64,000 bases of DNA, from NCBI GenBank assembly GCA_000004695.1, contig CM000152.2, positions 5,728,001 through 5,792,000 on the forward strand. The letters run 5' to 3'. Shown in pieces: positions 2,531 through 48,981 of this stretch. Numbering within the stretch: the first letter of the stretch is position 1; every line of letters begins with the position of its first letter. Below the pieces are notes generated by a model that saw nothing but the letters and a program-made list of their open reading frames with translations, was not told the DNA's origin and did not search any database. The position numbers and the translations under genes were made by a program. Source of the DNA: Dictyostelium discoideum. Taxonomy: Eukaryota.

Positions 2531-5223
2531 GTAATAATAATACAAATATAAATATAAATACAAATAATAATAATGATAGTAATAATAATAATTGTATTAA
2601 TAATGATTTAAAAAATAATAATAATAATAGTAATAATAATGTAAATAATAATAATAATAATATTAATGATAGTAATAATAATAATAATAGTAATAATAAT
2701 AATATTAATAATAATATTAATAATAATATTAATAATAATAATAATATTAAAAAGAAAAAAAAGAAAAATGAATTTACAGTTTATTTTTCAGTAATTGATA
2801 GTGGTTCAGGTATTGATCCTTATAGTACAAATTTATTATTTCAACCATTTTCATTATCAAGTTATAATGTAAATTCAACCAATACAGATGGTGAATTTGG
2901 TTTAGGTTTAGCAATTTGTAAACAATTATCAAATTTAATGAACGGTGAAATTAAATATGAAACAGAAATGGAGAAGGGATCAGTTTTCGAGTTACAAGTT
3001 CCAATGAAATGTGATAGTATTAGCTCAATTACTTCCTCGATGAATAGTACTACTAATACCACCAATCATTATCCAAGAATTATGAATAATCAAAGTTCAA
3101 AGTTTTTTGCAAACTCTAAATGGGGCGAAGGCTTAAAGATATTGGTTATTGATGATAATCCAAACATTGGAAAAGTGATAGCAATGCATTTGGAACCATT
3201 TGGATTTAAAGTTTTCCAAAGAACCACCTTTCAATCGGCTATTTATTTCTTTAATGAACGTAATGGTGATTTCAATCTAATTCTTTTGGACCCATTGATT
3301 CCTTCATTGGTAATCGATGAGATTAAACAAATGAAACAAGATTCTTCCAATATCATAAAGAATCCACCTTTGGTAATAATGTGTACCGCTAAACTTAGAA
3401 AATCTTTAAATGTTGATAATGTTCATTACCTCTATAAACCAATTAAAAGAGAACAATTAACTGTACTCTCTCAATTATTACCAAATACTTCAACAATTAA
3501 TCCAATTTATTCAAATCAAAATTTAAATAATAGTGGTAGTAGTAATGGTGGTGGTGGTGGTGGTGGTGGTGGTGGTGGTGGTGGTGGTGGTGGTGGCAGT
3601 GGTAGTAGCAATATTGATTTCAATAAAACTAAACTTGGTGGTTCTAATATTTCAACTGGTATTGGTAATAGTGGTTTAATTAATAGTAATAATATTCCAA
3701 CTCCAGTTAATACACCTTCAAATATTATTCCAAATTTACTTTCTTGTCAATCATTATTAACAAGTTTAAATAATGCAAATATTCCTCAATTAACAAATGA
3801 TATTGGTATAACAAATAATAATATTAATAATAATAGTTTAATGTTTACAACACCAAATTCAACACTTAGTAATAATGGTATTACAGGTTTAGATAATAAT
3901 AGTAATAATGATACTGGTAGTATTGATAATAATAGTAATATTAGTACAAATATTGATAATAATAATGATTATTTTATTAGAAATAATGGTATTCCTCCTC
4001 AAAATGATATGAATACTTATAATAATTATGTTTTAAATCATCAACAAGGTGTTCTACCAAAATCATTATCAGTACCATCCACTCCATTATCATATAATAT
4101 GTTACCAACAAATCTAAACATTAATGCAAAGAGATCTTCATTACAACCATTAAATGAAAATTCAGTTTTACCAACAAATTTAACACCTCCAATTTTATCT
4201 GCTTCACCTCAATCTTTACTTCCAATGGGTAATGATATTAATTCAATATTACCAAATACCCAACAATCACAAATAGATTTACAATCACAAATCGAATTAC
4301 AACCACTTTTACAATCAACTATAATTAGAAATGATCGTGGTGGTGATATTTTACCTGATTCAACTTTAGAAGGTCAAATAACAAATTTAAGTGGTAATAA
4401 TTCAACCATATCAATAAATCCACCATTACCAGAAACTAATAACAACACAACAACAACGACAACAACAACACAACCAAAGAAATCACCGATATTAACATCT
4501 TCAAATGGTAGTGATAAGAGTGAAGGTTCGACTGGTAGTAATAGATCAAAATCTAGAATTTCCTTTTTAAATTCAAGTAATAGTGGTTTATTAAAAAATA
4601 ATCTTGGTGAAGATATTTATTGTAAAGGTGATCAATCTGAAGGTATTCCAATACCAAAATCTGAAAGAACTTCTGATTCTTCATCTTCATCTTCTTCCTC
4701 TGATTCACATGGCCAAGATGATCATTCATATAGATTGGAAGATTTTTCAATTTCTTCACCATCTTCTCAATCACCATTACTAGATTTAAGTGGTACAAGT
4801 GGTACAAGTGGTACTACAAATCTTGCAAATAGTGGTATTAATAGTGGTAGTGGTAGTGGTGGTGGTGATATTATTAATCAAAATCAATTAATAACATCAA
4901 ATCAATTATTTCAACAACAACTACAACAGCAACAACAACCACAACAACAACAACCACCAGGAACTCCAACAATTTCACCATCATCATCATTCCCATTATT
5001 ACCAATACCAAGAGATATCATTAATAGCAGTGGTGCAAGTAGTGGTATTAAAGTTAAATCGTCAACTTCAATACCAGATTATGTACAAGTTTCACCAAGA
5101 AGATTTAGTGGTAGTAGTACAGGAAGTGGTAGTAGTGTTGCATCACCTCAATTACTTTCAACTTCAAATCAATTAAATAATAATATTAATAATCTTAACC
5201 TTAATAGTAATAATAATAACAAC

Positions 5224-6316: not shown

Positions 6317-7048
6317 TTTTTTTTTTTTGTTTTTTTTTTTTTTTATTATTATCTCTATCTCCACCTTTTGATTTAAATGATATTGTGTTAGGGGTGGTGC
6401 GAGTTAATGTATTTATTAAAAAAAACATAAACTTGCCTAAATACTGATATTTGTTTTTAAAAAAAAAAAAAAAATGTGTGTGAAAGAGTGAGGGAAAGAA
6501 AATAAAATATGAGGTAAGAAAAGAAAATAAAATAAAATAAAAATAAAATTAAATAAAACTAAAGGGTAATGGGTTGTGGTAATGGTTTTGGTGATTTAAG
6601 AGAATTAAATTGTTGTTTTGTTTTTTTATTTTTAAATCAAAAACTCATTATTTATCTATAAAAAAGATGGGATCGAATAATATATAATGGTATAATTATT
6701 TATTTAAAAATTATTAAATATGTTTTTTTAATTATTAAAAAAAAAAAAAAAAAAAAAAAAAAGTTCTTATAAATAGAAAAGAACATTAAAAATTTAATTA
6801 TTTAATTATTATTATTATTATTTAAAATAAAAAAAATAAAAAAATAATTAAAAAAATAAATAATAAAAATAAAATATTAATTTTCAATCTACCAATTAAA
6901 AAAAAAAAAAAAAATATATAAAAAGTTATTTTTTTTTTTTTTTTTGTATAATCAATTGTATTATTATTATTGTTATTATTATTGTCATAAATTAATATCA
7001 ATTTTAGTTTTTTTTTTTATTGATATTTTAAAAAAAAAAAAAAAAAAA

Positions 7049-7412
7049 ATGAAGTTTAATTTTTATTGTAGAATTATTTTATTATTTTCATTTGTTTTTT
7101 TATTTAAACAAATAAATTCCACAGGTGTTTTTTTAGAAGACTATCACAGATGTAGAGAACGATGTGAAATAAAAAATACCAATAATAATTTTTTAACGAG
7201 TAAATAAAATTAAAATTTTTTTTTTTTTTTTTTTTTTTCAATAATAATATTAATAATTAATTATTTTAAAAAATTAGTTACTATTAAAACTGAATATAGT
7301 TATTCAGAGGAATTTGATCAATGCAAAGAAGCTTGCCAAACTAAAAATAACAATTTATTACAAGGTAATTTCTATTTAAATTTTATTTTAATTTTAATTT
7401 TAATAATTTTAA

Positions 7413-17444: not shown

Positions 17445-21854
<4,410 letters not shown>

Positions 21855-24283: not shown

Positions 24284-27238
<2,955 letters not shown>

Positions 27239-27701: not shown

Positions 27702-30268
27702 ATGAATACTACTATTACAAATAATACAATGAATATTGTACCAATTAGTCAACAACAACAGCAACAACAGCAACAACAACAGCAACAACAGCAACAACAA
27801 CAACAACAGCAACAACAACAGCAACAACAGCAACAACAACAACAACAGCAACAACAACAGCAACAACAGCAACAACAACAACAACAGCAACAACAACAAC
27901 AACAAATGGAAGTTGGTGATACACCAGGAACTTATTTATGTTCAAAATGTGGTCAAATTAAAAAAGGTCATTTATGTCCAGAAAAGAGAGGTGGTGGTGT
28001 TACTATTAGTGGTGTTGCTGGTAGTAGTATTGGTATTGGTGGTATTAGTAATGTTGGAGGGGTTATTGGTGGTAGTGGAGCTAGTAGTAGTGGTGTAGTT
28101 GGTATTGATCAACAAGTTATGCCAATGTTTGGTATGCAAGGTGCAATGGCAACTAGAAGAGCCAATATTCAGTTACAACAAATCTTTCAACAACAACAAC
28201 AACAACAAAAACTTCAAAATGATATTCAACTTCAAAGCTTTAATGAATATCAACAACTTCTAATTGAACAACATGCTGCCACCTCTTACTTTAGCTATAC
28301 ACTAACACCTGAACAAAAAAAAGCACGTGAAAAGAATGCTTCCGATTTTAATTCAATCTTATTATTAGAAAGACAAGAAAGATATCCACATTATGTACGT
28401 ATATATATTTTTTATAAAATTAAATATAGATAAATAAATAAATTTAATAATTAATAATTAATTTTAAAAAAATAATTTAGTTTGATCCACATACAAAAAC
28501 ACTTCAAGTTATTAGTAGTTGGGGTATTAAAGTTTCAGATAAATGGAATGATGTACCAGAATTTGAAAAGAAATTAATAAATTATCAAAATCAACAAATG
28601 ATTAATAATAGATACGTTTATTTACAACAACAACGTGATATTCATGAGATTCAAAAAGAGATGTTAATGAATCATCAGAAGCAAGAGAAACAAATCGCAA
28701 GATATCAAGAATTGGAGAGAGATAGAAAAAAGAAGATCGAAGAAGAGATCGAAGCTATTGTACGTCCAAGATCTAATGTGTCTGCTTATTTTCACTATAT
28801 GAATATTAATCGTGAAGATGAGAAAAGAATGAACCCTGATGTACCACTCTCAGATATCTCAAAGATTTTAGGCGCAAAATGGAAACAATTGACACCAGAT
28901 GACCAAAAAGAGTACTATGAAAAAGCTAGAGAAGATAAAATTCGTTATGAAAATGAGATGGTATTGTACAATCAAAAATGTAAAGAAGTTGAAAATAGTT
29001 TCCCACAAATTAACTTTCAATTATTAATTAATTCACCACCACCACAACCAACTCAACAACAATTACAACAATTACAACAACAAAGACAAATTCAACAACA
29101 ATTACAACAACAACAACAACAACAACAATTACAACAACAACAACAATTACAACAACAATTATTACAACAACAACAACAACAACAATTACAACAACAATTA
29201 TATCAACAACAATTACTACAACAACAATTACAATTGCAACAACAACAACAACAACAACAACAACAGAAACCAATGCAACAACCATTACAACAACCATTAC
29301 AACAACAACCAATGCAACAACAACAACCAATGCAGCAACAACAATTGCAAAATCAACAACAGCAACAACCATTACAAAATCAACAACAACAACAACAACA
29401 ACAACAACAACCATTACAAAATCAACAAATTATTAATAATATTACAAGTTCAAGTACATCAACTAGTGGTCAACAATTTACATGTGATCATTGTAGTCAA
29501 TTAGATTTGAATAGTAATTTAATAACTTGTTCATCATGTAGTAAAAAGTATCATGCTAAATGTTTAAATTTACATCAAAAGTGTATTGATAAGTATAGAG
29601 AAGATCCAACTCAATGGAAGTGTACAGATTGTAAAAGTTGTGAACTATGTGATGACTCTGGTCATGATGAGAAAATGTTATTTTGTGATGTTTGTGATAA
29701 AGGTTATCATACTTTTTGTTTAACACCACCATTATCTCAAACTCCTGAAGGTGGTTGGAGATGTAACGATTGTGCTTTCTGTATTCATTGTTATTCAAGA
29801 GTTGATAAAAATAGTCTCAATAAAATTAAATGGAAAGAAAATTATACATGTTGTGATTCTTGTTTTTCAAAAGGTTTTAGTGAAAAATCAGTAAGTATAT
29901 TAAAAAAAAAAAAAAAAAAAATTAAATTAACTTTTTATTAATACTTTTTTTTTTTTTTTTTTTTACTAATATTATTTCTATAGAAATATTGCCCAATTTG
30001 TAGTCATTCAATAAAAGATGAAGGAGAAGAAGAAGATTCTATAACTACTTGCCAATATTGTCATAAATCAGTTCACGATCATTGCGATCAAAATATTATA
30101 GATAACCTTGAAAATGAGCATTTCATTTATAAATGTCCAAATTGTATTAGTGACAAGCAAATAAAACCAAGAGGAATAATTGGTGTTGTTGAAGAAAAGA
30201 CTCCAAAGAAATCATTAGGTAAAAGAAAAAAGAAAGATGATGAAGATGATGTTAATATTGAAGATTAA
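27702..30268 (+). CDS. HMG-box plus tandem PHD-finger protein with poly-Q tracts, 3 exons (27702..28394, 28481..29890, 29984..30268), about 795 aa
   Basis: Donors GTACGT(28395) and GTAAGT(29891); acceptors TTTAG(28480) and TATAG(29983). HMG box RPRSNVSAYFHYMNINREDEKRMNPDVPLSDISKILGAKWKQLTPDDQKEYYEKA. Two PHD-type C4HC3 fingers (CDHCSQ...CSSCSKKYHAKC; CELCDDSGHDEKMLFCDVCDKGYHTFC). Third exon holds a further Cys/His cluster. Confidence 0.85.
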
Positions 30269-30658: not shown

Positions 30659-31305
30659 TTATCTATTATTTGGTTGTTGTTGTTGGAATGGTTTAATCTT
30701 TCTAGCATTACTAACACCTTCACCAGTTACCCAAGGATGAATTAAGCATTGTTCGAAAGTGAATCTTTTTTCAGGATTCTTTTCAATGAGATGTGAAACC
30801 AAATCTTTTGCTTCATTTGAAACTTCTAAACCTTCAGGCCAACCATAATCTACATTTCTAATTTTCTCATAAAGTACAGCATTATTCTTATCCCAAAATG
30901 GGAAACAACCAGTCAATAAAACATAGGTGATAACACCAACACTCCATAAATCACATGCTTTATCGTATGGTTTACATTCTAAAACTTCTGGTGCTACATA
31001 TTCTGGTGAACCACAACATGTTTCTAAATAATCACCATCTCCAAATATTTTACTTAATCCAAAATCTGCTACCCTAATATCATCACCTTCTTCACCTGCA
31101 CATAATAAATTTTGTGGTTTCAAATCTCTATGAGCAATTCCATTAGCATGTAAATGACCAACTGCTGATACGATTTGTCTAACAATTTTACTTGCATCTT
31201 GTTCTGAATATTCACCTCTTTGTACAATTTTATCAAATAATTCACCACCTGTAACCCTAAAAATTAAAATTTAATTACATATAATTAATAAATTATTATT
31301 AATTG

Positions 31306-37325: not shown

Positions 37326-37613
37326 TTTATTATCTCTTTTCATTTCATTTATAAAATACAATTAATAATAATAATAAATAAACATAAAAAAATAAAAAAA
37401 GAAAAGGAAAAAATAAAAAAAACAAAAAAAAAAAAAGAAAATTAAAAATTTAAAAATTTAAAAATAAAAAAAAAAAAAAAAAAAAAAAATTTTAATTTTT
37501 TTAATTAAAATAACACATATGCATTTATTAAAAAGACGAATATATATTTTTGGAAACACTTTAAAATTTTAATTTAATATCTTTTTTTTTATTTTTTTTT
37601 ATTTATTGATTTC

Positions 37614-38175
37614 CTACATAATCGAACATCTACAATTTCCACCACAACCCTATTTATAATATTAATAAATTAGTATTAACTTTTTTTTTTTTTTTTTTTT
37701 GGGAAATAATTAAAAATTTTTAAAACTTACACATATATCACAACCACAACCGAGGCAATCCTACAATTTTATTATTATTTTTTTTTTTTTGTCAGTATTT
37801 CCAAGTTTATTTTTTTTTTTTTATATTTTACTTTAATTTTTACTACTTACACAACCACCAGCCATAGAATATATAACTCTAATATTTGAGGATTCTTCAA
37901 TATGAAGTTTATATAATGATTTTTTATCATATCTACAAGGTAATTTTTTATTTTCCAATTCAATCTAAAAAAAAAAAAAAAAATTAATATATTAATATTA
38001 ATTTACTTTTAATATCTTAAAAAAAATAGGTTAATTTTTTACATACATTAATAAGGTGTGTGTCAGTTCCAGTTCTATCATGTATCATTTCTTTTAAATC
38101 CTCTAAAGATGTATTTTTATCATCAACATCAAAGTCAAGTGTTTCATTACTTGCTAATTTACAATGAACCTTCAT
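37614..38175 (-). CDS. ubiquitin-fold (GG-terminated) plus Cys/Gly-rich tail plus CaaX protein, paralog A, 4 exons (38047..38175, 37851..37964, 37731..37760, 37614..37649), about 102 aa
   Basis: MKVHCKLASNETLDFDVDDKNTSLEDLKEMIHDRTGTDTHLIN | IELENKKLPCRYDKKSLYKLHIEESSNIRVIYSMAGGC | DCLGCGCDIC | GCGGNCRCSIM*. All donors GTATGT/GTAAGT, acceptors TTTAG/TTGTAG/AAATAG, all phase 0. Confidence 0.65.
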
Positions 38176-38580
38176 TTTTTTTTTTTTTATTATTTGTATA
38201 GCTTTTTATTTATTTAATTTATATTTTTTTTTTTTTCTTTAAAATTATTTATTTTAATTTCTAATTTATTGACTTTAAATATTTTTTTTTTTTAAAAAAA
38301 TAAAATAAATAATTTTTTTTTTTAAAGATCTATAAAGGAAATAAAAATTAAAAATTAATAAAAAAAAAAAATAAAATATAAAAAAAAAAAAAAATAAAAA
38401 AAAATTAAAAGAATAGATCCTTCACATGTTTGTGCATTTTGGAAAGAATTATAATTTGTATATTTTAAAAGAAAATGCAATGTTTTTTAAGGAAAAGTCG
38501 AATTATTAATTTTTATTAAATTTTTTAAAAAAAGAATTAAAAATTGTTGTTGTATTTATTATTTGAATTGGAATTTATTG

Positions 38581-38620
<40 letters not shown>

Positions 38621-39114
38621 TTAACCAAAATTGATTTTGTGGTTTTGGAATTACATGGACGAAAGAAAAACAAAAAGTAAATTTAATTTTTTTTTTTCTT
38701 TTTTTTTGATTAATTTAAAATAAAATAATATAAAATAAAATATAATAAAATAAATAAATTAAATGTATATTTTTAAAATTTGTTAATTGTCCTTTTTTAT
38801 TTTTTTATTTTTTTATTTTTTTTTTTTTTTGATTTAATAAATAGAAAAAAATTATTTTGTTGGTTGTAATTTTTTATTATTACTTTTTATTATTACTTTT
38901 TTTATTATTTCATTATAGTTATTTAAATATTTAGATTTTTATTTAATATATGATTAATTATTAAATAAAAGTGTTTAGATAATATTTGTTAAGCTTTGGT
39001 ATAAGTTTTTCTTTAAAATTTTAATAGAATTAGTAACCCTTTTATTATTGTTTAAAGTTCATTTGAGTAGATTTCTAATCTTAGAGAAAGGAAAGATTAA
39101 TCTAAGCACTATAA

Positions 39115-39150
<36 letters not shown>

Positions 39151-39177
39151 TTTTCAAGTCCTATTACTTTTTTTTTT

Positions 39178-39991
39178 TCATAAAATATAATAATCTTGAA
39201 ATCTATTTGATGAAGGTAAAGAAATACCACCTCTAACATTACTTGATAAACCCATACTACCACTAACATCAATACAAAAAATTACAAATGAATCGTCTTT
39301 TTCTTTTTCTTTTTCTTTTTCTTCATTTTTATTTTTATCAATTTCTTGATTTGTTGTGGTGGTTGTGGTGTTATTTATAATTTCAGGTTCTAAAATATAA
39401 TCTACTATATTTACCTTTGGAATTTCTTCATCATCAAGAATAATATCATCAGGTATCCAAAATGAAAGTGGTACATCAGGATTCAGTCTTTTCTCCTCTT
39501 CGCCATTAATATTAATATAGTGAAAATAGACAGACACATTAGATCTTGGACGTGGAATGGCTTCGATTTCTTCTTGAATCTTAATTTTCTACGACGATAA
39601 ATATCCTCAATCTTCTCTAATTCTAGACCATTTAAAATAAGTTTCTCTTGTTGACTGGATTCCTCTTTCTCTTTTTGTCTATTTCTTGAAGAGTTTCTTA
39701 ATTTATCCCATTCTTCACTAGTCAGCTGACTATCTTGTGTTTGTTGAGCAGTTGCAGAGCAGGCTGTAGTTGAGCAGGTTGTTGTTCAGCAGGTTGCTGA
39801 GAAGGTTGTTGAGAAGGTTGTAGAGCGGATTGTTGTTGTTCTAAAGAAAGGTCCAATATGTTTTGTTGATGTTTTCGTATAAAAAATCGCAATATTATTA
39901 ATTTTTGTTGCAAGGCAGGAAGATTCCCAGAATCAAGTTCTTCTTCTTCATCCTTGGAAGTAAAAAAATATTTTGATCCAAAATCAAACAT
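39178..39991 (-). pseudogene. decayed partial paralog of the HMG-box/PHD gene (exon-2 region through HMG box) fused to unrelated sequence
   Basis: Three frames needed: FDFGSKYFF...LPALQQKLI (vs parent FDPHTKTLQ...VPEFEKKLI); LELEKIEDIYRRRK then frameshift; IQEEIEAIPRPRSNVSVYFHYININGEEEKRLNPDVPLS (vs parent IEEEIEAIVRPRSNVSAYFHYMNINREDEKRMNPDVPLS). Similarity ends there and continues into a vWA/MIDAS-like DDSFVIFCIDVSGSMG before a stop. Confidence 0.45.
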
Positions 39992-40332
39992 TTTTATGTT
40001 TTTTTTTTTTTTTTTTCTGAGATGATTTTGTTTTTTTTTTTCATGAAATTTTTTTTTTATTTACAGTTTTTTTGGGAAACATATTATTTTTAGGCTTAAA
40101 CATTAAAAAAAAAGGCTGCGATATTATTCTTTTTTTTTTTTTTTTTTTTTTTATTTTATTTAAATATGGAAATAAAAAAAATAAAAAAATTTATTTAATT
40201 ATTTAGAGAATAAAGAAAACAGATTATTGTTTAACTTATTTAAAAAATTTATTTATTTATTTATTTATAGAATAAAGAAAACAGATTATTGTTTATTTAA
40301 ATCTTTAATTTATTTTATTTTATTATTATTAT

Positions 40333-40394
<62 letters not shown>

Positions 40395-40406
40395 TCAGTA
40401 GTCCAA

Positions 40407-40641
40407 TTATAAAATTGTACAATGACAACCTCCACCTAAACCACAGCAATCACAACCAGCGCCACAACCACCATTAAGGTCATAGAGGACTCTAATGTTT
40501 GGGGAATCTGTTATTTTGAAATTTGATAGTTTCTTTTTATCGAATCTTGTTGGTAATTTTTTACTATCTATTTCAATCTGTAATAAAAGTTTTATAATAT
40601 TAGTAATTGATATTTATTTTTAATTCTTTTACTATTATTAC

Positions 40642-40717
<76 letters not shown>

Positions 40718-40865
40718 TAAAATAAAAAATTACAATTTGGTGTTCAATTGGAATTCCATGAAGGTTATAAATTTTTGACTTTATATCACTAATTGAATTA
40801 TTATTATCAATATCCAATTCTAATATATTCTCTTCAATATTTGGTAGTTGGCAATTAACTTTCAT
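40407..40865 (-). CDS. ubiquitin-fold plus Cys-rich tail plus CaaX protein, paralog B, 2 exons (40734..40865, 40407..40577), 100 aa
   Basis: MKVNCQLPNIEENILELDIDNNNSISDIKSKIYNLHGIPIEHQI | IEIDSKKLPTRFDKKKLSNFKITDSPNIRVLYDLNGGCGAGCDCCGLGGGCHCTIL*. Donor GTAATT(40733), acceptor TTACAG(40578). Intron carries (ATT)n. Confidence 0.7.
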
Positions 40866-41356
40866 TTTTATTATCTATTTATTTTACTTTAAATAATTTT
40901 TTATTCAATTATTAAAATAAAATGTTTTTTTTTTTTTTAATTTTTAGTTTTAATTCATTTTTCAATTATTTTTTATTTTTATTTTTTTATTTTTTTTATT
41001 TTTTTTATTTTTTTATTTTAAAATAAAAAAGTCCTTTTCCCCTATTTGGAGGTTTTTTAAATTATGTTTCCTTTGATATGATCTATATTCTAAAATAGAA
41101 AAAAAAAAAATTAGATATTTTCTTAATTAAAAAAAAAAATTAAAAAAATTAAAAAAAAAATAAAATTAAAAAAAAAAAAAAAATAAAAAAAAAGCTTTTT
41201 TATACTTTTAAAGAATAAAAAAAAAAAAAAATAAATAAAAATGAAAATAAAAAATATTGTTTAATTTAAAAAAAAAAATTTCTTTTTTGAAAATGGAATG
41301 AAATTTATTTAGTTTATAAGATATTTATTTTGCACAACCCGCTGATATTTTCAAAA

Positions 41357-41425
41357 TTATTGGACAACACAATGACATCCCCCACCTAACCCCTAAGATA
41401 AAAATAGATTTTTGAATTGTATTAG

Positions 41426-41469
<44 letters not shown>

Positions 41470-41836
41470 ACATACACATATGTCGCAACCTCCTCCACAA
41501 CCACCTTCAAGGTCATACATCATTCTAATATCGGAATTTTCAGAAACTTTAAAGTTTGATAATTTCTTTTTGTCATACTTTGTTGTTAATTTCTTTTTGT
41601 CCATTTCAATCTAAAAAAAAAAAAAAAAAAAAAAGAAAAAAAAATTTTAATTAGTATAATTATTGATTAAAATTATTTTTAATATTTAATAAAATATAAT
41701 ACAATTTGGTTATGAATTGGAGTTCCGGTTTTATCAAAAATTAGGCTCTTGAGGTCATGGATTGATGTTTTTTCTGGATTTAAATCAAACTCTACGGTTT
41801 GATTTTCATTATTTGGTAAATGGCAATTAACTTTCA
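41357..41836 (-). CDS. ubiquitin-fold plus Cys-rich tail plus CaaX protein, paralog C, 3 exons (41702..41836, 41476..41610, 41357..41392), 101 aa
   Basis: MKVNCHLPNNENQTVEFDLNPEKTSIHDLKSLIFDKTGTPIHNQI | IEMDKKKLTTKYDKKKLSNFKVSENSDIRMMYDLEGGCGGGCDIC | GLGGGCHCVVQ*. Donors GTATTA and GTATGT; acceptors TTTTAG and CTTAG. Confidence 0.7.
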
Positions 41837-42546
41837 TTTTTTTATTTGTTTAAATTTATTATTCTTTATCTAATATTTTTTTATAAGTATGTAACAAATT
41901 TTTTGTTTTTTTAAAAAAAAATATTTGTATTTTTATTTTAATTTATATTTTTTTTTTTTTTTTTTATATTTTTAAAAAAAACCATTTTTTGACCTGTTCC
42001 CTAAATTATAAATAAAAAATAATCTATATTGTCATTTATAGTATTTTATTAAAAAAAAATTTAGATGTGTAAACCATTCTGTTTAAATTAATTGGTTTTT
42101 TTTTTTTTTTTTTAATTATTTTTTTTTTTTAACAAAACTATTAAAAAATGAAACATTACCATTGCAATTTTAATTTTAGTTTTTTTTATTTTTCCTAACA
42201 ATTCAAGTAAATTCTAAAAAATATAATAAATTAAGAAAAGGAAACTGGTTTTATGAGAATAAAAAAAAAACTATCCATTATTTTATTTTATTTTCATTAA
42301 TGTTTAAATTTTAAAAAAAATAAAAAAAGTGAAAATGGAAATATTATTTTATGAATAATTTAAAGTAACTGAGAAAAAAAAATAAAAAAAAAAAAAAATA
42401 GATGAAACACAAAAAATTAAAAAGACAAAAATAAAATAATAATAAATTGTATAATTTTAGGAATAACTTTAATTTCAATACGAAATAAAAAATTATGTAA
42501 TTTTTATTTATTTTTTATATATATAGTTAAATAGGTTTTATTTTTA

Positions 42547-42936
42547 TAGACTTTTTTTATAGAATTTGGCATGAGCAACCACTTGCTACACCACCACCTC
42601 CTTCTAATGAATAAACCATTCTTAACTAATATTTAAATATTAGTATAAATTTTAAAATTAATATTAAAAAAAAAAAAAAAAAAAAAATATATATATATAC
42701 ATATATATATATTTTAAGAATAATAATTACACTTGAGTTTTCTGCTAAATGTAATTTTGATAATTTTTTATTATCATATCTATTTGATAATCTTTTTGTA
42801 TCAAATTCAATTACTTGATTTGAAACAGGTGTACCAGTTTTATAATAAATTATATTTTTTAAATCATTAATGGTGGTTTCTTTTGGATCCAAACCTTCAA
42901 ATTGGATAATCTCTTTTGTACTTGGAAATTGACAAT
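42547..42936 (-). CDS. ubiquitin-fold plus Cys-rich tail plus CaaX protein, paralog D, 2 exons (42721..42936, 42547..42615), 94 aa
   Basis: MKVHCQFPSTKEIIQFEGLDPKETTINDLKNIIYYKTGTPVSNQVIEFDTKRLSNRYDNKKLSKLHLAENSS | LRMVYSLEGGGGVASGCSCQIL*. Donor GTAATT, acceptor ATTAG. Exon 1 is the ORF-track entry listed as 42626..42946; the displayed numbering places it 10 nt lower and I used the displayed numbering. Confidence 0.65.
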
Positions 42937-43650
42937 GAACTTTCATTTTTTTTATTTTTTTATTTTTAAATTTTATTTTATGTAGGTGAAAGCTATTTAG
43001 AGATTTTAAATAATTAAAAAATTATTTATTATTATTACTATTATTTCAAAATGATTTAAGTGAATAGAAGAATTAAAAAAAAAAATAAAAAAATAAAAAA
43101 GTATTTATAGGATCAAAATTATTAAAAGAAAAATTGACCCGGTCCTCCCATTAATTCTAAAAAAGGAAAAAAAAGAGACCCGTTCAAATTTTTAAAAAAA
43201 AAAAAAATAAAAAAAAAAAAAAATTAAAAATAAAAAATTAAAAAAAAAAATTAAAAAAATAAAAAATTTTAGATCTAAGATTTTCAAAATTTTGTTTTTA
43301 TATTTATCTTTTTTATAATTATTTGAAGATCTTGTTATTGTAGATTATAACATGTATAAACTATTTAGTTTCTATTCTTTTTTTTTTTTTTTTTTTTTTA
43401 TCCAAATTTTCAGAGGGTTTAAAAAAAAAAAAAAAAAGTTTTTATTAATTTAACACATACTTAAAAATTTAAAAATAAGGTAGTATCATAAGATCTACAC
43501 CGAAAAAAATCTTAAAGTAAAAAATACTTTACATAATTTTTATTATTAATTCTTTTTTTAAACACTTTATTTATTATTTTTTTTTTTTTAAAACCTTTTT
43601 TTTTTTTTTTTTTTTTTTTTTTGATTCTACTAAAATTAACTTTTTAAAAA

Positions 43651-44053
43651 CTATAAAATTTGACATACGCATTCACCACCACCAAAACCACATAAATCAC
43701 ATTCACAACAAGACCCACCCAAATCATATAAAATTCTAATATTTGTTGACTCTATAACTTTGAATTTTTTTAATTTAAATTTATCATGTTTTTGAGACAA
43801 TTTTTTATTATTTAATTCGATCTATATAATTTTAAATAAAATAAAATTAAAATCTTTTAATTTTAAATAAAATAAAATTAAAATCTTTTTAAAAAAAAAA
43901 ACTAATAATTTAAACACTTACAATTTGCATATCTATTGGTATTTTTTCTTTTTCATATATAAAACTTTTTAAAATATAAATAGTTGGATCAATTTGTCCA
44001 TTCATATCAAATTCTAATATTTTATCTGTTGGTAGTAAACATTTAATAATCAT
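43651..44053 (-). CDS. ubiquitin-fold plus Cys-rich tail plus CaaX protein, paralog E, 2 exons (43922..44053, 43651..43821), 100 aa
   Basis: MIIKCLLPTDKILEFDMNGQIDPTIYILKSFIYEKEKIPIDMQI | IELNNKKLSQKHDKFKLKKFKVIESTNIRILYDLGGSCCECDLCGFGGGECVCQIL*. Donor GTAAGT(43921), acceptor TATAG(43822). Confidence 0.7.
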
Positions 44054-44422
44054 TTTTTCAAACTTATTTAAATTTTAATTGGAAAAATAGAAATTTTAAA
44101 AATATTAAAACAAAATAATTAGTAACAATAAAATAAACAAAAAAAAAAATAAATAATAATAATAATAATAATATTAATAAATAATAAATAAAAAATTTTT
44201 TAAAAATTAATTGAAAAATAAATTAAAATATTATAATAAAATTAATTAATAAAAAAAAGTAAAAAATAAACAATACAATAAACAAAACCCACAAACATTA
44301 TTATCTAATAATTCCATGTATAGTATTTCGAAAGTGGGTAGTAGGTTTCTTTAAAATTATATTAAGTATATATATATGTATTTTTTTTTTTTTTTTTTTT
44401 TTTTTAAAATTTTTCTTTTTAT

Positions 44423-44492: not shown

Positions 44493-44774
44493 TTATTTCT
44501 TTTTCTTCATAGCTTGTTTACCTTGACCTTTCTTAATTTCTGGTTTACCTCTTTGTTGATCTCTTTCACGAGTTTCTACCTTTGTGAGTGCTTTATCATC
44601 TGTATTACCAATCATATGTCTTGAAATTAATGGTTTTGAATAATATTGAGTTAAATAATCACCAATTAATGGTTTTCTAAGATATTTTAAACCCATATTT
44701 GGACTACCTTCTGGTCTAAATCCAAAAATTCTTAATGATGCTGAATATGCACTTTGTAATTGTCTTGCAATCAT
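44493..44774 (-). CDS. mrps33: mitochondrial ribosomal protein S33 (MRP-S33 family) homolog, single exon
   Basis: 93-aa ORF. LQSAYSASLRIFGFRP...KYLRKPL and the basic tail KKGQGKQAMKKKK parallel human MRPS33 (SEYAFRMSRLSARLFGE...KKGEGKRAAKRK). Confidence 0.6.
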   Translation of the reverse strand: MIARQLQSAYSASLRIFGFRPEGSPNMGLKYLRKPLIGDYLTQYYSKPLISRHMIGNTDDKALTKVETRERDQQRGKPEIKKGQGKQAMKKKK

Positions 44775-47151: not shown

Positions 47152-48981
47152 TTAATTTGCTAATTTAAAAGTAGTTTCTTCACAACCATATGCTTTTGGT
47201 GATAATTGAATTAAAGTATGTAATGGAATATTAATGAAGGGGCATTCTTCTTTAACTCTACCTTTGAGATAAGAATAGAGACAACGAAGAGTGGCTTGAT
47301 GAGAAACGATTAGGACTGGTGATTTAGTTCTTTCCAATTCTAATAATAGAGGTTCAAGACGTTGAATTACATCTTCATAACTTTCACCTCTTGGATAACG
47401 ATATTGAAGTTTATCAGAATCACGAGCAGCCCTTTCATCTGGCATTTTCTCTTGAATTTCTTCATAGGTCATACCATCGCAAACACCAGCATCAATTTCA
47501 TCCAATGCTCTCATTACAACCTTTGGTTGAGAGATATATTGAGCTGTACGAATTGCACGTTTCAAACTTGAGGTCCATACCACAACTTCACCATCGTAGC
47601 CGTCAGCACGGACTTTTGAACACCATTCACTAATCCAAACGGCCAATTGGTGGGCGTAGTTATCGCCACGTTCAGTGAGGTCGCTGTCGCCACCAATACG
47701 ATTTTGGGCGTTGAACTCGCTCTCGCCCTGACGGGTCAACCAGATGGGACGGGGGTGGAGGTTGGAGGTTCATGAGGAAGAACACCACCCTGCTTGGTAT
47801 GTACCCGGTGATGTTATTCACCTCGATCTTCTTGCCAACATCGAATAGCTTTATGTAGCGAGTTTTCTCGCCCTCCACAGTCTCATACACTTTTAGATAA
47901 TGATTGATTCTATCACGAAAGTCTTGCACGGCCTTGGAGGGATCCACACCCTGGTAATCGGGTGACAATAGTTTGGTCTCCTTAATGTTATGTTCGATCA
48001 CTGATGCATCATTACAAATTGATTCTACATAAACCACAGTCATCTTTTCACGAGTGCATCTTTTCTCTACTAATTGTCTTCTCTCGTTGGTGGAGTTGGT
48101 CGCATCGTAAATACCAACCCTACCACCGTTATGCAACCATGATATCATGTCGTCCAATGCCGCAACTGCCATATGCAATCTCGCCTTTATACCCTCTGGA
48201 TTATGTGGATCAAAGAAGTCATGTGGTTGTCCTGCACCAATTCTTAATCTTCTATATTCTCCAACATTAAACACCTTGGCTGGTACTAACATCCAATTTA
48301 ACATTCTACATATCTTTCTTGCAACATATGTTTTACCTCTTGCTGGTAATCCAACCATTACTAAAACTATCTTTTCTTTATCTAATCCTGTATAACCTTG
48401 TGATCTTTTTTTTGTATCTTCATCTTTTTAAAAATATAAAAAAAAAAAAAAAAATTAATTAATAATCTTTTTTTTTTTTTTTTTTTTTTTTTTCTTTTTT
48501 TTCTCTCTCTCTCTCTCTCTCTCCTACAACTTACTATACTCATGTCTAATTAATAATTCTTGATGTTCTTTTATATCATTAACATCAATAACTTGTTGTT
48601 CTTTATTTGTACCTTTATCAATTATAAGGAATTGAATATCAACATCTTTTGGAAATTCTGGAAACTTTTGTAAAAATAAAAATTTTAAATCTTCAACAGA
48701 AATACCTTTAAAATATGCTTTTTTAACTCTATCTTTAACTCTAAAAAATATTTCTCTACTATTTGGTATTGACGATGATGATGTTGTTGTTGTTGATGGT
48801 GTTGGTGAATTTACATTATAATTATTATTGTCATTATTATTATTTATATTAAAATTATTACCATATCTATTTGAAGAAGGTGATGATGACCCTGCTATAT
48901 TACTCCCAGGTGGTGATGAAGATGGTGATGATTTCGGTATTGAATAATTTGATTCATCATGGTCATTATGATTATTATCTA
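47152..48981 (-). CDS. 6-phosphofructo-2-kinase/fructose-2,6-bisphosphatase homolog with an upstream PB1-like exon; two exons resolved (48535..48981, 47152..48423), initiator exon not found; contains a frameshift
   Basis: 6PF2K Walker A VMVGLPARGKTYVARKICRMLNWMLVPAKVFNVGEYRR. The bisphosphatase part (LHPRPIWLTRQGESEFNAQNRIGGDSDLTERG...) sits in the other frame (ORF 47152..47739). Upstream exon ...REIFFRVKDRVKKAYFKGISVEDLKFLFLQKFPEFPKDVDIQFLIIDKG...ELLIRHEY has donor A|GTAAGT (48534) and acceptor AAAAAG| (48424), phase 1, reading straight into ...N-EDTKKRSQGYTGLDKEKIVLVMVGLPARGKT. Confidence 0.7.
47755..47768. repeat. 7-bp tandem duplication (top gtggagg/ttggagg; minus CCTCCAA/CCTCCAC) causing a +1 frameshift in the PFKFB homolog
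   Basis: Deleting one 7-mer restores ...FFLMN-LHPRPIWLTRQGESE..., which is continuous with both flanking ORFs. Confidence 0.7.

Follow-up and report, generated by a model that had tools for sequence, protein, structure and literature searches.

What can a cell gain from a ubiquitin fold that runs directly into a short Cys/Gly-rich tail with a CaaX box at its end? This question is raised by five small genes, here termed paralogs A–E, clustered on the minus strand of a 64,000-nt stretch of the Dictyostelium discoideum genome (contig CM000152.2 of assembly GCA_000004695.1, positions 5,728,001 to 5,792,000; hereafter the window). An earlier note, made from the letters of the window alone, had drawn attention to the cluster; its observation is confirmed by the present analysis and its interpretation is supported in part. 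The genes are annotated yet uncharacterized, the public wording for A, B, and E being "hypothetical" or "ubiquitin-like domain-containing," and a search of the full-text literature returned no mention of their gene IDs or UniProt accessions and nothing relevant on MUB or prenylated ubiquitin-like proteins (UBLs) in Dictyostelium. The independent origin of the family from ubiquitin, its conserved Cys/Gly core, its universal CaaX box, its spread across Amoebozoa and its late, cell-type-partitioned expression appear to have gone undescribed so far. With a probability of about one half, we read the products as ubiquitin-fold proteins that act in terminal differentiation, are tethered to membranes by prenylation and probably also by S-acylation, and resemble the MUB/UBL3 family by convergence.

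The gene models were obtained by reading the region 37400–44300 on the minus strand, joining the exons and translating them; the base composition of the window is ~20% GC. All introns of the five models are canonical GT..AG introns in phase 0, the joined open reading frames (ORFs) are in frame, free of internal stops and 94–102 aa long, and a tblastn scan of the window finds exactly five copies, as the earlier note had proposed. Paralog A (DDB_G0282435; 37614..38175) comprises four exons (38175-38047, 37964-37851, 37760-37731, and 37649-37614) and encodes 102 aa with the tail GGCDCLGCGCDICGCGGNCRCSIM, the CaaX box and stop codon occupying 37614-37628; the model is identical to the annotated AX4 protein XP_640048.1 / Q54SJ1. 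Paralog B (DDB_G0282439; 40407..40865; exons 40865-40734 and 40577-40407) encodes 100 aa with the tail GGCGAGCDCCGLGGGCHCTIL at 40407-40472 and is likewise identical to an annotated AX4 protein (XP_640050.1 / Q54SI9). The same holds for paralog E (DDB_G0282445; 43651..44053; exons 44053-43922 and 43821-43651; XP_640053.1 / Q54SI6), which starts with MIIKC, has 100 aa and carries the tail GSCCECDLCGFGGGECVCQIL at 43651-43716. Paralog C (41357..41837; exons 41837-41703, 41610-41476, and 41392-41357; 101 aa) ends in GGCGGGCDIC/GLGGGCHCVVQ, the slash marking an exon junction, and is identical to KAM9964096.1 of a newer D. discoideum annotation. Paralog D (42557..42946; exons 42946-42731 and 42625-42557; 94 aa) has a short tail, GGGGVASGCSCQIL, in which the Cys-rich core is lost and the CxC-aaX ending is kept. 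Its structure matches the independently annotated D. firmibasis protein KAK5584742.1 as well as the D. dimigraforme ortholog; its spliced protein was not found in the public protein collection searched, which likewise lacks the two alternative models conjectured for C and D in AX4, intron read-throughs included. Based on the gene order (435/437_ps/439/441/443/445), C is taken to be DDB_G0282441 and D to be DDB_G0282443.

The splice junctions are conserved in two further species and, in A, B, and E, agree with the annotated AX4 proteins. The earlier note was also right about the N-termini and tails, the hexapeptides at the C-terminus and the sharing of intron positions. Its coordinates stand for A, B, and E and had to be adjusted for the other two genes, C starting at 41837 instead of 41836 and D spanning 42557..42946 instead of 42547..42936. 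When the first exon of D is allowed to run on into its intron, the resulting ORF has 106 aa and a hydrophobic end that is junk (42626-42946, minus strand); it is the sole family member seen in a plain list of ORFs.

The head of ~80 aa is a diverged yet genuine ubiquitin homolog. Alignment of the family profile with ubiquitin by hhalign gives a probability of 98% (E 2.5e-13, 68 columns) and places the diglycine (GG) of A–D on G75-G76 of ubiquitin. A profile of family members only, with ubiquitin left out, finds ubiquitin as its best match in the PDB (single-domain E ~7e-5), and here, too, the alignment reaches the GG. The Pfam domain PF00240 is detected above the cut-off of 25.4 bits in D (27.6), in DDB_G0293906, a sixth AX4 paralog located elsewhere in the genome (26.5), and in P0139, a relative on a Logan contig (39.1); A–C score below the threshold (18–20 bits) and E has no match. 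An AlphaFold2 model of B shows predicted local distance difference test (pLDDT) values of 77–82 in the core, 62 overall and 31–35 in the tail, which is unstructured, and all 50 of its top 50 Foldseek matches in the PDB are ubiquitin (template modeling score (TM) 0.82–0.86, root-mean-square deviation 1.6–2.0 Å). The ubiquitin fold that the earlier note had read from the letters is thereby confirmed, its expected topology being beta-beta-alpha-beta-beta-3/10-beta. The model was computed from 23 diverse sequences; an input of 13 close sequences gave a pLDDT of 46 and the N-terminal half of the fold only. The spliced model of D was left out of the alignments used for structure prediction and for the representative search, and a chimeric D. 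dimigraforme model (P0003, see below) was retained as a single row of alignments A2 and A3.

Identity of the head to ubiquitin is only 22–26%, and the hhalign alignment shows which features persist. The head keeps its hydrophobic core and the K27-D52 pair; the recognition residues are replaced (I44 by E, R72 by D, S, or V, and R74 by N, E, or A), and the L8 region is altered. Directly ahead of the GG the family has Y-[DSAV]-[LMI]-x as opposed to LRLR in ubiquitin, and dictyostelid members share a 3-residue insertion in the beta4 loop as well as a conserved charged stretch, IE.D.KKL..[RK][YF]DKK. The GG lies in the ubiquitin register in A–D and in the relatives from Polysphondylium violaceum, Tieghemostelium lacteum, Cavenderia fasciculata, Heterostelium album, Planoprotostelium fungivorum and the Logan contig. 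The claim that every head ends in a diglycine thus holds for A–D and fails for E, the sole lineage seen without it. Here, a displacement of the glycines, with LGGS in AX4 and LDGS in the two orthologs, puts G-S at the position homologous to the ubiquitin Gly-Gly in all three species; the lineage is nonetheless under purifying selection, with its tail intact.

To our knowledge, prenyl-anchored ubiquitin folds have so far been known only as the MUB/UBL3 proteins, which occur in plants, animals and fungi. Amoebozoa go unmentioned in a recent review, which describes MUB/UBL3 proteins as prenylated at the CaaX box and as having a functional Cys just before it (PMC10511055). The likeness to MUB/UBL3 (PF13881; PDB 2GOW, 1WGH, and 4X57) comprises a small beta-grasp domain, a flexible tail, the CaaX box and the Cys just ahead of it, and extends to individual endings, as CTIL is shared with At MUB and CCQII of P. 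violaceum corresponds to CCVIL of UBL3. By analogy, the same mode of action would be predicted, namely a ubiquitin fold held by its prenyl group at the cytosolic side of a membrane (PMC10511055). In contrast to the D. discoideum family, MUB/UBL3 proteins lack the GG and have an unconserved linker instead of a conserved Gly/Cys core with up to nine Cys, and their Ile-centered patch is not conserved in the family. Aligned with human UBL3, whose sequence was checked against PDB 2GOW, the family profile reaches a probability of 1.6% in hhalign; there is no match to PF13881 at E<=10, and no MUB/UBL3 chain is among the top 60 PDB matches. Membership in MUB/UBL3, which the earlier note had considered, is rejected on account of these results and of the GG, the likeness being architectural only, and the sequence comparisons point to an origin of the family within Amoebozoa and independent of MUB/UBL3. 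The same architecture would then have been reached a second time, from ubiquitin itself and with the GG kept, together with an added core of ~20 residues that is more conserved than the fold and with paralogs split between stalk and spore.

The architecture was traced by running a profile exhaustively against 1.8 billion representatives and by a word-indexed search. The matches are of two kinds, polyubiquitins and a small set of true relatives with the tail. Since the relatives are listed among many polyubiquitins, which dominate the matches, the taxonomic range given here is a lower bound: at least 25 sequences from at least 10 taxa. A recurrence in 25 sequences from 10 taxa far exceeds chance. 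Besides DDB_G0293906, relatives are found in D. purpureum, D. citrinum, D. firmibasis, D. dimigraforme, P. violaceum (two adjacent genes), T. lacteum, H. album, C. fasciculata (two genes) and P. fungivorum, an amoebozoan outside the dictyostelids; the earlier note had suggested searching other dictyostelid genomes. The Logan contig SRR29757259 (1097 bp) holds an intronless relative, P0139, ending in ...HGGCAGACDICGCGGSCRCDII, and with this contig the family may range beyond the named taxa; amino-acid usage in P0139 is less AT-biased, and an LSM-domain gene adjoins it. Several public gene models are corrected here, four of them in other genomes. When the DNA is read, DFA_10590 of C. fasciculata (locus L004, 3001-3565) ends in ...GGCGGCDICGTGCIIM and a stop codon, the public model splicing over the TAA that follows ...GTGCIIM. 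PPL_06719 of H. album (locus L005, 3001-5304) ends in ...GCDLCGCGGECC followed by CNIL and a stop codon; CNIL lies on a 12-nt micro-exon which the public model skips, fusing the gene to a downstream RNase HII gene to give 589 aa.

The C-terminal ending is the most constant part of the family. All 25 sequences, including the corrected DFA_10590 (CIIM) and PPL_06719 (CNIL), carry C at position -4 and end in M, L, Q, or I (-1), with I or V at -2, so the CaaX ending already claimed for the five paralogs is invariant across the family. An extra Cys at -6 or -5 is present in all but one of them, C. fasciculata DFA_10590. The endings observed are CSIM, CTIL, CVVQ, CQIL, CSIQ, CQII, CQIM, CSIL, CIIM, CNIL, CDII, CEIL, CIIL, and CVIQ. 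The 25 sequences conform to the CaaX prenylation motif (Cys at -4, an aliphatic residue at -2, and an X suited to farnesyltransferase (M, Q, S, A) or geranylgeranyltransferase I (L, I, F)), a conformity with motif rules only. The tails of A, B, C, and E contain 5–9 Cys in 21–24 aa, arranged as CxC, CxxC, and CC and accompanied by conserved Asp and Gly, with aromatic residues absent; that of D contains two Cys. The core GCD[I/L]CGxGG is near-invariant between Dictyostelium and Planoprotostelium, whose folds share 33–40% identity: the Planoprotostelium protein ends in ...HGGCGMGCDICGCGGGCRCEIL, which nearly matches the Dictyostelium tails GGCGGGCDICGLGGGCHCVVQ and GGCDCCGCGCDICGCGGNCRCSIM. In D, the Cys-rich core is lost and CxC-aaX is intact in 3/3 species, which marks the lipid box as the indispensable part. 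No signal peptide is visible by eye at the N-terminus of the family sequences. The tail peptides match no Pfam family at E<=10, metallothioneins included, and the tail profile matches no PDB chain at E<=10; a search with a profile of the last 42 residues returned nothing, missed the known members too and is hence uninformative. Elsewhere in the window, tblastn gives weak tail matches at 29035-29415, 26493-26543, 18506-18559, and 4917-4973; these are poly-Cys translations of simple-sequence repeats, that is, chance matches of low complexity outside the family.

The Cys pair at the end of the tail had also been called Rab-like. The CXC or CC of Rab GTPases forms the extreme C-terminus of the protein and is presented by REP; in the family, the CxC is followed by three more residues throughout, and the proteins are not GTPases; a Rab-type CXC is therefore rejected. 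Instead, the pattern is of the CxC-aaX type found in H-Ras, which ends in CMSCKCVLS. The family resembles the dual lipidation signal of H-Ras (farnesyl plus palmitoyl) and cysteine-string domains in its CxC ahead of aaX and in its clustered upstream Cys; it differs in that the signal of H-Ras sits on a GTPase and that of the family on a ubiquitin fold, with a string far more Cys/Gly-rich and conserved than Ras hypervariable regions.

Conservation of the cluster itself was followed in two congeners. The same five genes are present one-to-one and in the same order, E-D-C-B-A, in D. firmibasis (L001) and D. dimigraforme (L002), and 10/10 orthologs have intact ORFs and the same intron positions. 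In a neighbor-joining tree, each paralog forms its own three-species clade, and A, whose tail is of the ancestral type, joins DDB_G0293906 and the D. purpureum gene. In pooled Nei-Gojobori estimates, omega is lower for the tail (0.065) than for the fold (0.13), with dS at 0.6–0.9. The intron at Q-I/I is common to C. fasciculata and H. album, as is that of D (ENSS/LRMVY). Since order and introns of the array are conserved and its genes are under purifying selection, the locus is old and stable, in contrast to the dynamic locus of the earlier note.

Expression values were taken from published RNA-seq (Kin et al., supplementary file 5) and are given in transcripts per million (TPM). A, B, and C are silent in growing cells and induced at 20–24 h, with A peaking in stalk and B and C in spores. 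The time course of A reads 8.5, 1.5, 4.7, 3.1, and 5.5, followed by 211 at 20 h and 598 at 24 h, and its cell-type values are 41 in cup, 228 in spore, 1397 in stalk and 0.4 in vegetative cells. B stays at ~0 until 20 h (11) and rises to 415 at 24 h (spore 498, stalk 40). RNA of C, identified as DDB_G0282441 by gene order, is essentially confined to spores (24 h 15.5; spore 327, stalk 6, vegetative 0), and that of DDB_G0293906 is weak (spore 15). In a life-cycle proteome of 2026, the A protein was detected by mass spectrometry only in fruiting bodies, in 1/2 raw replicates (PMC12821622).

Given an invariant CaaX box with its neighboring Cys, no signal peptide and a tail that is unstructured in the AlphaFold model, lipid anchoring is the most economical explanation of the family. 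Each gene would encode a small cytosolic protein, a ubiquitin domain followed by a flexible C-terminal lipidation cassette, with the intact protein as the functional form. The CaaX box would be prenylated, with farnesyl where X is M or Q and with geranylgeranyl where X is L or I, after which aaX would be removed and the new C-terminus carboxymethylated; these three processing steps and the direction of geranylgeranylation by X = L have been reviewed (PMC10511055). The Cys two residues upstream in CxC-aaX would be S-acylated, probably along with other cysteines of the Gly/Cys string, and the ubiquitin-like head would thereby be held tightly on the cytoplasmic face of a membrane. There, the charged surface IE-x-D-x-KKL-x-x-[RK]-[YF]-DKK may dock partner proteins in the manner of MUB/UBL3. 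Tethering would take place in maturing stalk and spore cells at culmination (20–24 h); as at least A, B, and C are switched on only at this stage and the paralogs are split by cell type, a role in late stalk or spore maturation is suggested. UBL3 is reported to be linked to substrates in a thiol-dependent, reduction-sensitive manner via the Cys beside its CaaX box (PMC10511055), and a further possibility is that partner proteins become bonded covalently to thiols of the multi-Cys tail. That the proteins are prenylated and S-acylated, sit at a membrane and serve as adaptors is what we infer from these features.

Several findings weigh against a simple membrane anchor. The call of CaaX lipidation follows from motif rules only, and expression values for D and E were not found in the supplements of the published datasets searched. 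The near-invariant GCD[I/L]CGxGG with its conserved Asp exceeds what simple S-acylation needs and suggests something more specific, for example a metal site or enzyme recognition. The GG is kept at the exact ubiquitin position in every lineage but E, and an uncleaved anchor needs none, although the tail is Gly-rich anyway. Finally, as I44 is replaced by E, MUB-like binding of an E2 or of ubiquitin-binding domains cannot be assumed. Because the core and the in-register GG are left unexplained by an anchor, cleavage after the GG and a metal-thiolate site are kept as less likely explanations. This does not extend to the idea of decaying ubiquitin-derived pseudogenes or gene-prediction artifacts in AT-rich DNA. 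All genes of the family are short, intron-split and without described function, and wrong or chimeric public models exist for C and D in AX4 as well as for relatives in four other genomes; yet three species have intact ORFs and share the introns, omega is 0.07–0.13, members occur across Dictyostelia and in Planoprotostelium, RNA reaches hundreds to >1000 TPM in specific cell types, and the A protein is seen by mass spectrometry. This reading is refuted by the conservation and expression data, and its probability is negligible.

Cleavage after the GG would turn the proteins into precursors, from which a dedicated protease frees a ubiquitin-like modifier, its GG now available for conjugation, and/or a prenylated Cys-rich lipopeptide of 12–22 residues; the released peptide could be a late developmental signal or a membrane component. 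The natural ubiquitin fusions eL40 and eS31 are cleaved at the GG, and such fusions of ubiquitin to small Cys-rich proteins are among the PDB profile matches. The family resembles them (UBA52/eL40, RPS27A/eS31) in the full-length homology of the head, in a GG that aligns exactly with G75-G76 and is kept in A–D and all other taxa seen, and in the Cys-rich peptide directly after it; it differs in that the extension is non-ribosomal and ends in CaaX. Moreover, the head is nearer to ubiquitin proper than to any non-conjugating UBL, and conservation is higher in the tail than in the head, which would be expected if the tail is the product. However, the E lineage has G-S in 3/3 species and nevertheless shows purifying selection and an intact tail, so cleavage of the ubiquitin-fusion type cannot apply to E. 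Residues read by deubiquitinases and E1 (R72, R74, I44, and the L8 region) are not conserved, the GG may simply be part of a Gly-rich tail, and no processed form has been observed; we consider the precursor reading quite unlikely. Its most specific version, in which a cut at culmination frees a carboxymethylated GCDICGCGGxCxC-prenyl peptide that functions as a redox or metal center or as a signal, either bound to the membrane or exported, appears more doubtful still. If true, it would provide an amoebozoan counterpart of fungal a-factor-type pheromones that acts in spore and stalk maturation and has a ubiquitin fold as its leader. Only if the GG is cleaved does the family share with fungal a-factor precursors a short CaaX-ended peptide behind a removable N-terminal part; it would differ in that its leader is a folded ubiquitin domain.

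Metal binding by the tail is unlikely as well. The 20-residue Gly/Cys/Asp segment would form a metal-thiolate cluster for Cu(I), Zn, or Cd, or a prenylated metallochaperone of the HIPP type, with the head as a solubilizing or chaperoning partner, and would sequester or deliver metal in dormant spores and dying stalk cells. With 5–9 Cys in 21–24 residues as CxC, CxxC, and CC, conserved Asp and Gly and no aromatics, the composition recalls the Neurospora Cu-metallothionein, and the fact that GCD[I/L]CGxGGxCxC is extremely conserved across Amoebozoa points to a defined geometry of coordination and not to a generic acylation string. Fungal Cu-metallothioneins and plant HIPPs, the latter combining a metal site with a CaaX box, are likewise Gly/Cys/Asp-rich with CxC and CxxC. 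Nonetheless, the family tail has no sequence match among metallothionein or HMA families, any other Pfam family or PDB chains, and AlphaFold shows no ordered structure, though metals lie outside its modeling. The Cys count varies from 2 to 9 and D, which is down to two, is still conserved; the invariant aliphatic aaX is not explained by metal binding alone, and the expression pattern is developmental. The favored reading of lipid-anchored ubiquitin-fold proteins can be pursued in Dictyostelium, which is genetically tractable and offers a direct route to the function of a membrane-tethered ubiquitin fold in terminal differentiation. A second question, whether a ubiquitin-type GG junction can release a lipidated peptide, becomes addressable in the same organism.

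The surroundings of the cluster are conserved, too. In L001 and L002, it is flanked by an MRP-S33/6-phosphofructo-2-kinase side and a SNARE/protein-kinase side, and the flanking genes of the window are syntenic with these: MRP-S33 (44493-44774, minus strand; Pfam E 2.5e-10), a 6-phosphofructo-2-kinase/His-phosphatase gene (47152-48358, minus strand) and a protein kinase (30659-31123, minus strand). A 190-aa "MRP-S33" model of D. firmibasis (L001 6088-7121) terminates precisely with the stop codon of the E ortholog, whose exons lie at 6739-6870 and 6951-7118; it seems to fuse the MRP-S33 gene with E, leaving E unannotated in that species. The 104-aa D. dimigraforme model P0003 (L002 10001-12806) joins the first exon of C to the last exons of A, skipping B, and is rejected as a real protein.

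Between A and B, the unrelated pseudogene reported by the earlier note corresponds to the annotated DDB_G0282437_ps (39178..39991, minus strand), a non-family sequence whose frame is broken into three pieces in three-frame translation. About 100 bp of it (…IPRPRSNVSVYFHYININGEEEKRLNPD) match a gene at window positions 28748-28852 and the syntenic counterparts of that gene at L001 19968-20072 and L002 20351-20455. The A-B spacer measures 2.2 kb in D. discoideum versus 0.6–0.9 kb in D. firmibasis and D. dimigraforme, and as it is longer in D. discoideum alone, the fragment looks like a local partial duplication confined to this lineage. The pseudogene ends in a truncated vWA-like DxSxS motif (FCIDVSGSMG), a reading of our own to which Pfam lends no support.

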